A stretch of DNA of 64,000 bases. Source: Eledone cirrhosa (Eukaryota). How positions within the stretch are numbered: position 1 is the first letter of the stretch; every line of letters begins with the position of its first letter. The notes below the pieces were generated by a model, which worked only from the letters and a program-made list of their open reading frames with translations, had not been told where the DNA came from and did not search any database. Of this stretch, positions 8,595 to 64,000 are shown one piece after another. The stretch is from the NCBI GenBank assembly GCA_964016885.1, contig OZ024761.1, forward strand, positions 2,294,001 to 2,358,000. Direction: 5' to 3'. The translations under genes and the position numbers were made by a program.

Positions 8595-8597
<3 letters not shown>

Positions 8598-11085
8598 TAG
8601 ACATACTATAAAACTAACCTGCTCTTCCACCAAAAATTTAGCGCAAAATATTAATAGAATTAATAATAGAAATTTAAAACCTAACCAAAATACCAATAAT
8701 AACCCAAGCAATATTCAATCGAATAACTGTAACTGTAGAAATAAATCCGACTGTCCGTTAAATAACAACTGCTTAGCTAAAAATGTAGTTTATAATTGTA
8801 ATGTTAAAACTAATTTAAATTCATTTAACTATGTCGGTTCTACCTCTACAGAATTTAAATCCCGCTTCAATAATCATAAAAATTCTTTTACAGATCCAAA
8901 CAAAAAATCTTCAACTTCGCTATCTAGCCTATTATGGGACCTAAAACGAGATAATGTTGAATATTCGCTGATTTGGAATATTATTTCAAAAGCTACTCCT
9001 TTTAATTCCTCTTCAGAAAATTGTGACCTTTGTATAGAGGAAATATTTTTTTATATTAAAGACCAAAAATTCCCTTAATTTAAGGAATAATTTATTCAGT
9101 TGCTGCAGACATAGATTGAACTCAACGTTTAAATATAAATATAAATTTAAAATGTAGTTTAATTAATTAAGTAATTTAGTTAATATATGTAACCTGTCGA
9201 TAAATCATTAGATTCCTTCGCCTTTTTCATTTTCTTTGGTTAAGTACCCAAGTATAAATTTTCTTCATAAATATAATTATAAATATAATAAACTATTCTA
9301 GAAAAGTTTATCCTTTCAATATCTTGAATAAAATATACGTAAGATAAATGTCTATACTAAAGATATTATTTTAGCTTAAAATATTCTATATTTTAAGAGT
9401 TTTAAAAATTTTTTTTTTTATTTTTAAAAATTGTTTTAAATTTTTTTTAATTTTTTTTAAATTTTTTTATTTTTAAACTTTTTAATATTTTGATATATGT
9501 AGAATCCTTGTTTTTTAAGTTATATTGATATAATATTTTATTTTTTATTAGATTCATTTTATTTATTTTTTTATTAGATTCATTTTATTTTTTATTTTTA
9601 TTAGATTTGTTTTTATTAGATTTGTTTTTATTCTGATCGCTTCTCATAATTTTTATTAGATTTATTTTTTATTCTGATAGTTTCTCATAATTTTCAAAAG
9701 TTTGTCCTTTCAATATCTTGATTAAAATATACGTAAGATTAATTTCTATACTAAATATATTAAACATATTATTTTAACTTAAAATATTCTATAATATTTT
9801 GGGATATTTTAGTATTTTGATATTTGTAGAATTCGTTTGCTTTTTAAGTTATATTGATATAATTATATTTCCAAAATATAATCCTTTTGTATTTTATATA
9901 CTCAATTGTACTATGTTATATGTTGATGTATACGTATATCTATGTACGGCTAATGTATCTATATGTGTGTGTTGACATACATATACATGTGTTATATGTT
10001 GTTTTTATGATTATATGTCTGTCTGTATATATGCATGAGTGACGCGTGTTTACCAATTGAAGATGCACATACATATCTATTCATGTATAGCTAAGAATTA
10101 TGGATGTGAATGTACAGGCTTACACATGCAGTTTTTGATTGCAGATATGCATAACTTAACAGCCATAAATGCATGAAAGTTAATCCTATATATTTATATA
10201 TATATACTAAAAACTTTTCATTTTTAATTAATAACACAGGGAATGTATGGCAATAAATAAAAAATCACTTATGCTTTGTATATATATATTATATGCGGGA
10301 GTAGATATAATGTGTATTTTCTGAGTGAGTGTGTATATATATATATTTATGCACCTTTGCCTATGTGTATGTAATATGCGATAGATAATCTCTCTAGCAA
10401 TATATATATTTTATAATGTTTAAATTCCAATTTTTAATATATTGATCTCAATTTTAAACTAAATATCTAATCATAATTAAACAATGTGTAATTTCTCATA
10501 TTATATATCTATATTCCATTCATGAATATTAATATTTCTAATTTTATTTATGCTTTTCATCCCAATTGTTAACTCAACTTAATATGACATAACTTAAGGT
10601 TTTCGTTCTCTCCCCCCTCTCTCTATCTCTATATATCTCTCTCTGGATTTTTTTTCTGTCTGATGGTTTGATATCTCCCCGTTATTTTTCCTCTGTTCTC
10701 TTTTTGCTTTCTTCTTTTTCTTTATCTATCTCTCCCTTTCTTTTCTCCACGTTTCTCTCTCTCTCTCCATCTGTTTACTTACTCTTAACACTATGACTTA
10801 CTAAAGTAAACAAATCACTATCCTGATGGCCTCCAAAAGCAACGGTCAATTTTTAAAGGGGTACGTCAATGTCTATTTATAAAACTGTTATATATTGTAT
10901 TTTGTCTGATGAAGGCATACCATAATGTAACTTGGTATCCTTGAAATATATATAATGAAATAAATATGGTTTTATAAATATAGTTTCCATTTATTAATAT
11001 CGTATATCTACTCCAAATATTTGTCGAGTTCTTTATATCAGTTATAAAAATATTTGCTTGTTGTATCCCAACAATTTAAATAAAA
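8595..11085 (+). mobile_element. Penelope-like element, 5'-truncated: GIY-YIG C-terminus, long AT-rich 3' region, hammerhead
   Basis: From ~8720 reads CNCRNKSDCPLNNNCLAKNVVYNCNVKTNLNSFNYVGSTSTEFKSRFNNHKNSF..TSLSSLLWDLK..LIWNIISKA..CDLCIEE; hammerhead at 10898-10962; related copy at 62515-64000. Confidence 0.85.
10898..10962 (+). ncRNA. Type I hammerhead ribozyme
   Basis: tattttgt-CTGATGA-aggcatacca..tggtatcct-t-GAAA-TATATA-TA-atgaaata; palindromic minimal stem III. Confidence 0.75.
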
Positions 11086-16556: not shown

Positions 16557-16647
16557 TTAATATATATATATTAGTATTGGTGCTCTGAAATAGCGATGTA
16601 TACATGAATGTATGTATAGTATATTTGGCAATATACTGTATGTTTAA

Positions 16648-17224
16648 TTAACCCTTTAGCATTCACATTATTTTTTGATGGTATTATATTTTGATGGTAA
16701 AGGCTTTACCTCACATAATTATGTCACATACAGCCAGTAGGCATCTCTAACAAAATACACCCCGTCCCACCACCACCACCCCCACCCCATCCACACCGCC
16801 CCCTTCTATGTAAAGTTATGTTGGTGCCACACCATCCAGGCCGAAACAAATGAGACCGTGTAGGTGTCACGACAAAAAAACACACAGTCCACGCTGTAAT
16901 GTGGCCGTGTAGGCAACACGGTAAAAACCTCCCAGACCCACACTGTAAATGTGGTTGGTGTTAGGAAGGGCATCCAACTGTAGAAAACCTGCCAGACAGT
17001 CCTATGCGAGCAAGACAATCACTCTTGCCTCAAGTGGGACTACCCCCGTCCAAACCCATGCAAGCGTGGAACACGGGACGTTAAACGTTGATGATGATGA
17101 TGATGATGATGATGAATATCAAATCTATGAGAACAATACCTTAACATTAGTTTGAGCGACCAGTTACAGCCAGTTTCAACAGAAAGAGAGAGAATTCTGG
17201 CCGGTTTGAACATTAAAGGGTTAA
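16648..17224. mobile_element. TTAA-ended MITE (piggyBac-like ends) interrupted by an RTE-B 3' tail (16730-17115)
   Basis: ttaacccttta...taaagggttaa termini; internal segment is the reverse complement of 33875-34255. Confidence 0.6.
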
Positions 17225-17391
17225 AAAGATTTTTAAGACCATCACTATGAGTTTTAAAGTAGTGACTATATGAAGGATCTTCTAAATGTTTTTAATTAAA
17301 CATACAGTATATTGCCAAATATACTATACATACATACATTCATATATATATGAGCACAACAAATAAGAATACACACATAAACATGTCTTAC

Positions 17392-41749: not shown

Positions 41750-42090
41750 TTTATTCAAAAGCAAGAAACAAACCTTATTTAGTAAGAAAAAAAAAGGGGG
41801 GGAAACAGAAGGAAAGAAAGAAAGAAAGAATAGGGAAATATAGAAAAAAACAAGTGAGAAAGAAAGAAGAAAAAGAACGGGAAAGGGAGGGGATGGCAAG
41901 AGCTCTGGTGTCGCAGAAGAGAGGGGTGTAAAGAGGGAGGGGGATTGACTTTGGGCCTAGGGCAAGAATGCTGCACCCCATGGACAAGATGGCAAAAGCA
42001 TTCCTCTGGACGATGGCCATTGACACCCGCTGCAACAGCCACCCAACCTCGCAGAGCTCCCTCCTCAGACAGGCCGCCACAGAAACCATT
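41750..42090 (-). mobile_element. CRE-like (RLE) non-LTR retrotransposon 3' remnant
   Basis: E.GWLLQRVSMAIVQRNAFAIL resembles the CRE C-terminal LxQRxSxAIxRGNA motif; pyrimidine-rich 3' UTR and AATAAA follow. Confidence 0.6.
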
Positions 42091-42310
42091 CATGTGTGAC
42101 AGCCTGTCTATAGGAAGTCTGTGGTCATAGTCCATAAAGTCTTAGATTAGGGGGAAGGTAGTGTAATAAAGAAATAAATGTAAACCAGTGGAATGGCAAT
42201 TTGATGTCATTACAAAGATAAACAAATAAACAGATAAAGAAATAAATAATAAGGATAGAGAGAATAGGATAGTGAGATGAAAAAATAAAATAAAAAATAA
42301 AGAATAAAAC

Positions 42311-42618
42311 ACACCAACAGTGTGAAACAGATCTGTCAGCTTATCTCCCTTCCTTTGTAACATAGTCACTACTTTAAAATAATAGTGCAAGGTCTTCCAA
42401 ATGTTTTTAATTAAATTGCCAAATATACTATACATACATTCATTTATACATCGCTATTTCAGAGCACCAATCCTAATTTTCAATTTTTGCTGGACCGGCA
42501 ACCGCTCTGTATAATCCGTTCCTGATTATTACTGGAATTCTATAAGAATCCAGCCTTTATAATTTTCGGCACAGGTCGGCGAGTGCTATGCTCTGATGAA
42601 CACCAACAGTGTGAAACA
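42311..42618 (+). ncRNA. 289-nt circularly permuted hammerhead (retrozyme-like) monomer
   Basis: 19-bp direct repeats acaccaacagtgtgaaaca; left end carries GAAA-cagatctg-TC-agc, right end carries gct-CTGATGA-acac..gtgt-GAAA. Confidence 0.7.
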
Positions 42619-43379: not shown

Positions 43380-44354
43380 GTCAACAGCACATAAACAGCA
43401 AGTGCCAGAGATCCTAAATCAGTTTATCACAGCTTCAATGGGAAAAGCTCAATCTCTGTAAATGACACCCCTACAAAAGAACAGGTTGAGAGCTACTGGA
43501 GATCTGTATAGGAAACAAATAATGGATTTAACAAACAAATTATATGACTAAAAGAACTGGAACAGGAATACTGCCAGCATGCCCAGACAAAACAATATGA
43601 TATAGATGGGTCAATACTGGAAACAGCTCTACAGAAAATGTTGAATAGGAAATCTCCAGGCCCAGACCTCATAACAGGATACTGGCTGAAGAATTTCACC
43701 TTCCATCACCAAGATCTCATATGGCTGTTTAGAGAAACCATCAAAGGCACACAAGAACTGCCCCAATGGTTATCAACTGCCACTATTCTCCTCATCCCCC
43801 AAAATAGTCTGCCAGAACATCATGTACAAATTATACCCTGGGTGCCTTAATCTATTCTTGCAAGATCATTGTGCGATGAACAAAATTATGACACCTGAGC
43901 AAGCTGTTGGAAAGAAGGAAGTGTGGTGCTGCATAGATCACCTACTAACAAATGAAATGATACAGGAAAAAGCAGCAAAGAATTGCTGGAACATGACTAT
44001 GGTGTGGTTGGACTATCAGAAGGCTTTTGATAGTGTACCTCATGGGTGGATTATTAAGGCTTTACAGTTAGCCAAAGTCCCACAATAACTAGTAGCTACT
44101 GTTGAACACCTGACCAAGAACTGCTACACCAACTTGATCCTTAGGGGTGAGAAGGAGCAAATTAAGACTGATACAATACACTACCAGAAAGGCATATTTC
44201 AGGGTGATAGCTTATCAGTGCTGCTGTTCATCCTCTCACTAAACCTACTGCCATACCTGTTCGCAAAACAAAGTGGTCATAGAAGTGGGTCCAGAAATAT
44301 CTCCCATCTTTTCTTTTTTGATGACCTGAAGTTGTATGGGCCAAATATCAACTA
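43380..44354 (+). mobile_element. R4/Dong-like non-LTR retrotransposon RT fragment, decayed
   Basis: KSPGPDLITGYWLKNF, WLDYQKAFDSVPHGWI, KGIFQGDSLSVLLFILSLN, ISHLFFFDDLKLY. Confidence 0.8.
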
Positions 44355-61711: not shown

Positions 61712-61782
61712 TATTTTATTATGCGCATTTCAAAAACAAACATCATCAAGCAATAATATTTGTGTTTTCATCAGATAAAACA
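61712..61782 (-). ncRNA. Type I hammerhead ribozyme
   Basis: Reverse complement of 62245-62315. Confidence 0.78.
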
Positions 61783-62244: not shown

Positions 62245-62315
62245 TGTTTTATCTGATGAAAACACAAATATTATTGCTTGATGATGTTTGTTTTTGAAAT
62301 GCGCATAATAAAATA
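62245..62315 (+). ncRNA. Type I hammerhead ribozyme
   Basis: tgttttat-CTGATGA-long stem II-GAAA-TGCGCA-TA-ataaaata. Confidence 0.78.
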
Positions 62316-62514: not shown

Positions 62515-64000
62515 AAGATATTAATAAATGGAAACTATATTTATAAAACCATATTTATTTTATTATATATATTTCAAGGGCGACCAAGCCAATCTTGGTG
62601 CGCTTTCATCAGATAAAATACAAAATTTGTTTTATAAATAACGACATACCCATGGAAATCAACCTTAACGGTCGGAAATTCGCTGGATAGTGGAAACTTA
62701 TTAGGGGTAATTCAAAGTTATGTGTGAATATGCAAATGAATGTATGAACAAATTGAAAAAACAACCTTTTATTTAAATTACGCTGGAGAGAGATAGGGAA
62801 GAAAGAGAGAGAGAAAAAAGAAATTACTGTTATGAGATAGATAGAGATAGAGAGAAGAAAGAAATTTATCAGAGGATGAACTTATGTAACGTAAATAAGT
62901 CTTAAGTTTATATAAAGTTTATATTAATGTTACGTATATTTATTAATTATTGTTAGAATTCTAATATAATACAATGTAATATTTACTATTATAAGTATAT
63001 AGAAAAAATATATATATATAAAAAATAAATATATATAAAGATATATTGAAAAATAAATTGAAAATAAATAGATTTAAAGTAGAAAATAGGAGAATCAATA
63101 GATAGAAAAATGTAGATAGAAGAATAGATATATGAGTGGATAAATGGGTATATCATGTTATAGATAATTGTTTTAATAAGTTATGAGGGATACTGGTTTA
63201 TATTTAGTGTAAGTAATTAAATTGACTGAGTTAATAAGATTATTTATGTTTTTAATGTTTTAAATTGGGAAGATACTGAAAATCCCAGTTTTGCTTATTT
63301 ATTAGTTAATATGAGACCATTTTGACGAAGATATAAATGTTGAAAGATATATTTAGCCAGAATTAGTTATTGGTTATAACTCTAATATTAAATAATTAAA
63401 AAATATAAAAATATTAAAAGTTCTGGAAAAAACTTTTAAAAAAACTTTTAAATCTCAGAAGATACTCAAAAAACCTTTTTAAACAAAAATACTTAAAAAG
63501 TACTTAAACTATTTAAAATGTTTAAAAATATTTTAAAATATTTAAAATTATAAAAAAAAAAAAATGTCGAATAATCTTTAAAAAGTAATTTTTAAAGAAA
63601 TAAGTAATTTAAAAAAAAATTTTTTTTAAATATATGAGATATTTTAGAAGTAAAATAAAAAAAGAAAGATTTAAGCAGTAAAAAATAAAGATTTAAGAAG
63701 TAAAAATATTAAAATTAGAGTTAAACTTAGAATTTAAACAAATTTTAATAAGTGAAATTATAGGCATTAGAATAAAGTAAACATTATGTAGAAAAAGTTA
63801 TAAATGTAATTATGTTTTATATATAGTTCTAAACGTTGAGTTTAGGCGATGTTTACAAGAACTAAATAAATTCATACGTATCTTAATAGGGTTCTTATAT
63901 TTAACTATAAAGAAAATTTCCTCAACACAATTTTCAAAATCTAGATAAAGCTGTGTTTCTGTAGCCGGGTGCTTTTGAAATTATATCCCAAGTTAAAGAA
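62515..64000 (-). mobile_element. Penelope-like element 3' part (related to 8595-11085)
   Basis: Minus strand near 64000 reads SLTWDIISKAPGY...VEEIFFIVKYKNPIKIRMNLFSSCKHRL; AT-rich tail; hammerhead at 62556-62620. Confidence 0.8.
62556..62620 (-). ncRNA. Type I hammerhead ribozyme
   Basis: tattttat-CTGATGA-aagcgcaccaag-attgg-cttggtcgccctt-GAAA-TATATA-TA-ataaaata. Confidence 0.78.

Follow-up and report, generated by a model that had tools for sequence, protein, structure and literature searches.

Metazoan non-LTR retrozymes, described from coral, mussel and axolotl (PMC7229834) and surveyed in vertebrates (bioRxiv 10.64898/2026.07.22.740005), are, as far as the accessible parts of these sources go, non-coding units of 150-450 nt with a GC content below 50%, each with one type I hammerhead ribozyme, found as tandem copies and dispersed monomers and proposed to depend on Penelope-like elements (PLEs). 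The defining paper named PLEs strong candidates for retrozyme mobilisation (PMC7229834); the 2026 vertebrate preprint, which derives retrozymes from the pseudo-LTRs (pLTRs) of PLEs, draws the PLE link from co-occurrence and pLTR likeness and, in its available parts, leaves the mechanism open (bioRxiv 10.64898/2026.07.22.740005). PLEs themselves are marked by partial tandems accompanied by an inverted copy that is truncated at its 5' end, by a tail of 30-40 bp on one side, and by (TA)n as target, the last being a trait of the clades Hydra, Naiad and Neptune (PMC8557442). The tail is the interval between two internal priming sites, and uncleaved RNA was the main template in the only PLE studied in vitro, according to the sections at hand of that study (PMC11167929).

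Here we describe a copy of a non-LTR retrozyme family in Eledone cirrhosa, a new instance of this already known type. It lies on the + strand at 42311..42618 of the 64,000-nt stretch of DNA that was analysed (the window). Our search of the literature on cephalopod retrozymes, hammerheads and Penelope found no published description of the family among the papers listed. The copy is a damaged member of a non-coding hammerhead family of ~317 nt that is probably mobilised in trans by a PLE, most likely one of the Hydra clade. The mechanism by which animal retrozymes move has so far been hypothetical, and the Eledone family shows a PLE-specific tail, alternating start sites, inverted arms and TA targets. 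The window copy itself is merely a decayed family member; the value lies in the footprints of the family.

Compared with the retrozymes known from other animals, the sampled Eledone copies are mostly partial tandems of 0.3-1.75 units in head-to-head pairs rather than long arrays, with one array of ~6 turns, and neither the two-site tail signature nor TA targeting appears in the available parts of the metazoan retrozyme descriptions. Xenopus retrozymes have a pLTR relative, whereas none was found for the Eledone family, nor did any pLTR parent appear among the PLEs and loci examined. Circular RNAs have been shown for the coral, mussel and axolotl retrozymes in the accessible text of PMC7229834, while the evidence on the Eledone family is genomic. 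With Hydra-clade PLEs (PMC8557442) and Poseidon PAc (PMC11167929), as far as these are described in the portions available, it shares the (TA)n target, 5' truncation, partial tandems, an inverted 5'-truncated arm, a 30-40-nt tail at one end and internal priming downstream of the hammerhead. Unlike PLEs, it has no ORF, and in contrast to the minimal motif at the PLE ends of this genome it carries a full canonical-type hammerhead with a 3-bp stem III and a long stem I extension. The hammerhead repeats of newt and axolotl satellite 2 (~330 bp; PMC7229834), likened here by their description, are similar in unit size and in having a stem III that is both weak and palindromic, as fits cleavage by dimers, but the Eledone family is dispersed with PLE-type ends and does not form satellite arrays.

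The window copy is a degenerate solo hammerhead repeat of one unit plus 19 nt. The earlier note had reported identical 19-mers at 42311 and 42600, and these are confirmed: the sequence occurs exactly twice in the window, with 0-base extension on either side, and the chance expectation of such a 19-bp repeat within 500 bp is 3e-4, a rough estimate from composition only. All features that follow are on the + strand. The left repeat (42311..42329) contains stem II (ACAC/GTGT, loop CAACA), GAAA and the start of stem III; the palindromic stem III (ACAGATCTGT) and GUC occupy 42327..42337, with cleavage predicted after C42337; and the 3' strand of stem I (AGCTTA), CTC and the onset of the long stem I extension lie at 42338..42356, followed by a 17-nt deletion. 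The junction of a private 11-nt deletion is at 42414..42415, and the absent letters are present in contig loose ends at 42415. The family's 3' start site A, a hairpin region where copies elsewhere terminate on (TA)n, corresponds to 42436..42448, and start site B, ~30 nt past A, to 42467..42477, the interval from A to B being the PLE 'tail'. GAG, a bulge, the 5' strand of stem I (TATGCT) and the core CTGATGA follow at 42581..42599, and the right repeat (stem II, GAAA; 42600..42618) ends the copy 8 nt before the second cleavage site. The motif AAACA at 42307..42311 recurs where the copy stops, as its final 5 nt (42614-42618), a candidate microhomology or 5-bp target duplication.

The split hammerhead parts are where they had been placed before (GATCTGTC from 42330, AGCTTA at 42338-42343, TATGCT at 42587-42592 and CTGATGA at 42593-42599), and two descriptions need amendment. 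The strands of stem I were correctly located, but stem I of the family has 6 bp, with a U-U mismatch in the window copy, whose 5' strand reads TATGCT against mostly TAAGCT or TAGGCT in the family. Likewise, 289 nt is the true spacing in this copy but not the unit of the family, which is 316-317 nt; the window copy is shorter because of its 17-nt and 11-nt deletions, whose junctions are unique to it among 165 loci compared. Relative to three intact units it has 15-24 substitutions and 27-28 nt deleted. Considering its two private deletions, the broken stem I extension, the stem I mismatch and the non-canonical 3' end, this copy is likely dead, and with one weak, permuted ribozyme it likely could not release a monomer.

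Contigs of three runs from one sample showed no empty allele of this insertion; no contig piece spanned the junction on the 42618 side, and loose ends entered TA repeats at window positions 42448 and 42477. When the left flank was used to look for an empty site, the proximal part had no match, and only 41940-42078 resembled a repeat. We also considered the copy as part of a head-to-head PLE chimera, which is ruled out because the proximal left flank is unmatched, also by the intact PLE protein. Window positions 41750-42078 (-) are the 3' end of a repeat that is abundant, with 2,030 candidates, and presumably a non-LTR retrotransposon judging by motif.

The host genome (3.0 Gb, 1,796 contigs) contains many relatives. 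Tandem copies, which the earlier note had expected, appeared in the genome-wide search: the 40 candidates scored, out of 2,911, yielded 136 matches, many in tandem or inverted pairs. An exact 30-mer reaching from stem II across the cleavage site matched 173 times genome-wide, an exact motif from the region 40-60 nt beyond the cleavage site 403 times, and an exact body 25-mer common to more subfamilies 1,054 times, these being motif matches and not copy numbers (the depth of the contig runs likewise gives no copy number); the reversed-motif controls for all three had 0 matches genome-wide. The units are non-coding, have a GC content of 34-37% and contain one type I hammerhead each, which supports at the family level the retrozyme-like type assigned earlier. 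At least four subfamilies are distinguished by stem II (ACAC, ATAC, GTAC, ACGC) and by the length of stem III, from ACAGACTGT to ACAGAGATCTGT, and they mostly retain a palindrome-like stem III (L166-L251, alignment A1).

The ribozyme had been thought complete only when the unit is circularised, and this is not borne out, as the 173 exact matches and 130 junction-spanning copies elsewhere attest: the ribozyme is not confined to a circularised form, because it is intact across tandem junctions in other copies. There are 12 same-strand tandem sets; both ribozymes are intact by our criteria in L002, L003 and L010, and three of five in L018. The window copy itself has no two consecutive complete ribozymes; its linear transcript contains all ribozyme parts in permuted order, with a predicted helix pairing probability of at most 0.1.

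A hammerhead was defined by the core CUGANGA...GAAA...NUH and three helices, with stem I open. Among the 130 junction-spanning copies, which were retrieved with the ribozyme motif and are thus biased to intact ones, the core is intact in 95, and core and stems together in 52. Stem II changes from C-G to U-A in 20 of them and stem I from U-A to G-C in 15; stem I is prolonged by an extension of 12-13 bp, with exchanges of G-C/A-U, G-C/C-G and A-U/G-C (106 of 130 rows in register). A less biased alignment was built from 51 of 59 stretches chosen by body motif, 8 being left out. In these 51 copies, 92.5% of 1,459 cells are paired, compared with 86.9 in shuffles (0/500) and 38-49% with slid partners; covariation is 0.241 versus 0.144 shuffled (0/500) and 0.06-0.09 slid; and two-sided change is found in 98 cells versus 33 shuffled and 11-27 slid, counts that include inherited changes many times over. 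The covarying pairs are A-U/G-C and U-A/C-G in stem II and U-A/G-C in stem I, and four extension pairs show 9-19 two-sided changes each. Two of five shuffle measures were unexceptional in the same copies, namely pairs with two-sided change (125/500) and pair types (241/500). The hammerhead helices covary across subfamilies.

Folded as circles, three intact units gave z values of -3.8, -6.6 and -2.5 (60 shuffles each), with stem II left free, against +0.8 for the window copy. When 71-nt stretches around the junction were folded without constraints, no z was significant. For the intact copies, prediction gives a formed stem II and extension, a partly formed stem I and, in the monomer, an unformed stem III. 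This resembles what the available part of PMC4209133 describes for metazoan hammerheads that cleave as dimers, and the hammerheads of this family probably act likewise, given that stem III is palindromic. The Rfam hammerhead model had no match in the window at the gathering threshold, nor in three intact loci at E<=1; Rfam miRNA matches fell on inverted arms and microsatellites.

The way in which the copies are inserted is informative. Our main sample of arms was drawn from the first 100 of the 403 motif matches, which fall into 90 loci; all of these loci were used. The sample has 156 arms in total and is biased to window-like subfamilies and to arms reaching q66-90, where q positions are numbered from the first base of the 19-mer in locus L003 and the predicted cleavage follows q27. 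Both orientations are present in 57 of 90 loci, 56 head-to-head and 1 tail-to-tail. The 3' ends of the 156 arms cluster at q164-169 and q194-202, the 5' ends are scattered, and (TA)n adjoins 124 of 134 canonical 3' ends. The two start sites alternate: in 39 of 43 pairs with both ends canonical there is one start site per arm (expected 50%, p 1.4e-8), the other 14 of the 57 loci, outside this count, being 13 with a non-canonical end and the tail-to-tail one. In a second sample, chosen by body motif, 63 of 74 arms end in the same start-site zone, and one of the other 11 is clipped by the limit of the retrieved sequence. The unit junction is crossed by 102 of the 156 arms, and twice by 7. The insertions of this family therefore bear PLE-type footprints, and since many copies carry these marks, the family likely spreads with a PLE reverse transcriptase.

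The window contains a second, canonical head-to-head insertion of the family at 16570..17347 (both strands), whose - arm ends at site B on (TA)n (16570) and whose + arm ends at site A on (TA)n (17347). The body fragments pointed out previously are indeed there, at 16570-16651 (-), 17221-17269 (-) and 17273-17347 (+), as parts of this one insertion. It is split by a TTAA-flanked element of 569 bp at 16652-17220 with imperfect 14-bp inverted ends (CCCTTTA...), which we take to be piggyBac-like and which inserted later than the retrozyme arm.

Which PLE could be the helper? Copies in a single orientation make up 60 of 148 loci, 21 of them with a microsatellite at the 5' junction and 39 without. 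Among these 39, two are joined head-to-head to a truncated PLE frame (L018/L061, L086), in three others (L114, L143, L176) the head-to-head partner is an inverted PLE-type end that carries a minimal hammerhead, and L183 adjoins a PLE-type end in the same orientation. The five head-to-head joins have no TA between retrozyme arm and PLE; the PLE partners, compared for complementary start sites in the chimeric arms, belong to several different families. Each join may be one event with two RNAs, or may come from successive insertions at one TA edge; the latter is conceivable because in 39 of the 60 loci with a single orientation the 5' junction has no microsatellite. Queried with Hydra-type proteins, the 39 non-microsatellite 5' flanks gave PLE protein matches at the junction in inverted orientation only. 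No PLE ORF was found on the same strand upstream of single-orientation copies in the loci tested with Hydra-type protein pieces, and an ORF with reverse transcriptase and GIY-YIG was found neither within the unit nor upstream in these loci. Copies occurring only as the ends of long ORF-bearing Penelope elements, a case raised in the earlier note, were looked for, and this is not what we saw.

The PLE family joined in L086 has intact open frames of 784-786 aa and many near-identical copies. By eye, the 784-aa frame has RWR (for RWK), DKT, a CxCX5C linker, a C-terminal GIY-YIG (YIG) and CxxC/CxH, and on these motifs, with the accessible part of PMC8557442 as reference, the candidate helper frames appear Hydra-clade-like; Pfam and PDB had no match for the PLE frames. 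The intact PLEs found have pLTRs unrelated to the unit and different ribozyme-like motifs, and comparison of the unit with six PLE pieces (the L086-family terminal repeat and five others) showed no significant DNA likeness (best E 0.13).

Several further observations concern PLEs near the family. Loci L208-L211 (G000 C3, C1, C2), the candidate helper, hold a young Hydra-clade-like PLE family with intact frames of 784-786 aa, tandem copies and pyrimidine-rich repeats of ~1.2 kb, and the ribozyme-like motif upstream of its frame departs from the standard core. At L061:1409-6548, about six turns of the unit stand head-to-head with a truncated Hydra-like PLE of 3.2 kb. The other end of this array abuts through (TAA)n an element that we take to be Dong/R4-like and that may have cut the array; the remainder of the array was not found in the 6.6 kb to the left of that neighbour (L145). 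Inspection of the L123 5' flank by eye suggests an endonuclease C-terminus from a different PLE clade, oriented head-to-head to a retrozyme arm. Beside the retrozyme arms of L056, L238, L246 and L247 is a different short repeat, likewise anchored in TA, which contains CAGAAGA...TGAAA and may represent one more hammerhead-like family.

We propose the following for the movement of the family. The sequences establish the family itself, the covariation of its structure, the target, the two start sites, the geometry of the arms and the read-through, and from these we infer cleavage, the circle and the identity of the enzyme. A locus with two tandem ribozymes would be transcribed, and the hammerheads, probably as dimers, would excise a monomer, the long stem holding its ends together; this monomer would likely be ligated into a circle. 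The PLE protein would nick both strands of a (TA)n tract, and each strand would prime cDNA at its own internal site, ~135 nt downstream of the cleavage site for one and ~165 nt for the other. Extending backwards, the cDNAs would cross the resealed cleavage site and cover as much as ~1.75 turns, so that the products would be head-to-head partial tandems again holding one or two whole ribozymes. As a more specific and tentative version, a possibility rather than an expectation, a PLE dimer may use a single covalently closed retrozyme circle to prime the two target strands, at fixed sites 30 nt apart, rolling through the ligated junction, and sometimes prime one strand on Hydra-clade PLE RNA instead, giving chimeras.

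Was the template a circle or a linear RNA? The cleavage site is passed by 99 of 104 arms that reach it, none stopping within 1 nt, and passed a second time by 8 of 10 arms; thus a cleaved linear monomer is not the usual template. The 104 arms show no pile-up of insertion 5' ends at the cleavage site, and nine 5' ends at position 44 of the arm sample probably come from the way in which a self-similar stretch aligns. Divergence is lower within than between loci, with medians of 0.062 versus 0.094 for 63 tandem loci and 0.057 versus 0.093 for 68 inverted loci (p<1e-9), and segments of one insertion have rare alleles in common at 7% (tandem) and 14% (inverted) versus 1.6% by chance. Across 80 pairs (L018 left out), the two turns cannot be told apart by any allele. 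This within-insertion similarity fits one monomer that was copied more than once. Given the family model, we lean slightly towards a circular template, going by these sequence patterns and by analogy with the retrozyme circles of coral, mussel and axolotl.

One alternative is that a PLE mobilises the family from a linear, uncleaved tandem transcript and that no circle takes part in mobility. Indeed, the PAc PLE used unprocessed RNA in vitro and ribozyme mutants still inserted, according to the available part of PMC11167929, and in our arms the stop rate grows with length from ~0.003 to ~0.02 per nt, all sampled arms ending by ~560 nt. Such a rise would also be expected from a finite linear precursor; on a circle, the need to displace its own cDNA after one turn could explain it. 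However, the longest arms of the main sample have scattered 5' ends with none in common, the turns are undistinguished by any allele and have rare alleles in common, and locus L061, outside the main sample, reaches about six turns with internal gaps. Moreover, linear templates of this kind only shrink, but several subfamilies retain the full unit and ribozyme fold. We regard this alternative as rather unlikely.

Another alternative concerns the window copy only, which had been read as a cDNA of just over one turn of a circle. In that case it would be a direct product primed inside the ribozyme on the AAACA match; AAACA does stand at both ends, only 8 nt separate the 3' end from the cleavage site that would follow, and the 5' end reads through the cleavage site. 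But the copy ends at q19, at no family start site, where no other arm ends in either sample (0/156, 0/74), so just over one turn is not demonstrable from it; some scattered non-canonical end is present in about one arm of seven, and arm lengths near one unit are common in the 156 arms. This origin is doubtful. The copy may have been primed off-site on the 5-nt match in an A/C-rich tract, as AAACA at both ends allows, or may have lost its 3' part later, which is plausible because it carries two private deletions. The 19-bp overlap is likely a by-product of the two truncation points; it is real, yet weak evidence for a circle, and the case for a circular template is made by family statistics and analogy instead.

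Finally, a reading in which some long autonomous PLE has this unit as its pseudo-LTR, with all seen copies being 5'-truncated ends of that PLE, would agree with every insertion mark being a PLE mark and with the likeness of Xenopus retrozymes to pLTRs in the accessible part of the vertebrate preprint (bioRxiv 10.64898/2026.07.22.740005), but it is very improbable, as arms longer than one unit re-enter the same unit, Hydra-type matches at the 5' flanks are inverted only and the intact PLEs have unrelated pLTRs, a test that took in about 200 loci with Hydra-type protein pieces as flank queries and leaves room for a rare master.

Mobilisation in trans by a PLE thus remains our preferred reading. 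A small ribozyme unit that encodes no protein bears PLE footprints here, and its genome contains intact candidate helper ORFs; together with the published in vitro PLE assay this makes the circle as template directly testable. If true, a PLE dimer acting on a circle would mean direct genomic evidence of RNA circles as Penelope-type templates, with the helper named.

The window also contains other elements. PLE-type minimal hammerhead motifs are located at 61714-61780 (-), 62247-62313 (+), 62558-62618 (-) and ~10900-10960 (+), the first two forming a head-to-head pair with TA ends and a one-sided tail. A non-LTR reverse transcriptase fragment lies at ~43690-44085 (+) (L001:2880-3275; Pfam RVT_1, E 6e-6, under the curated cut-off). 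At 8596-9042 (+) the linker and endonuclease from the C-terminal part of a Hydra-like PLE frame are present, 41% identical to the intact L208 frame.
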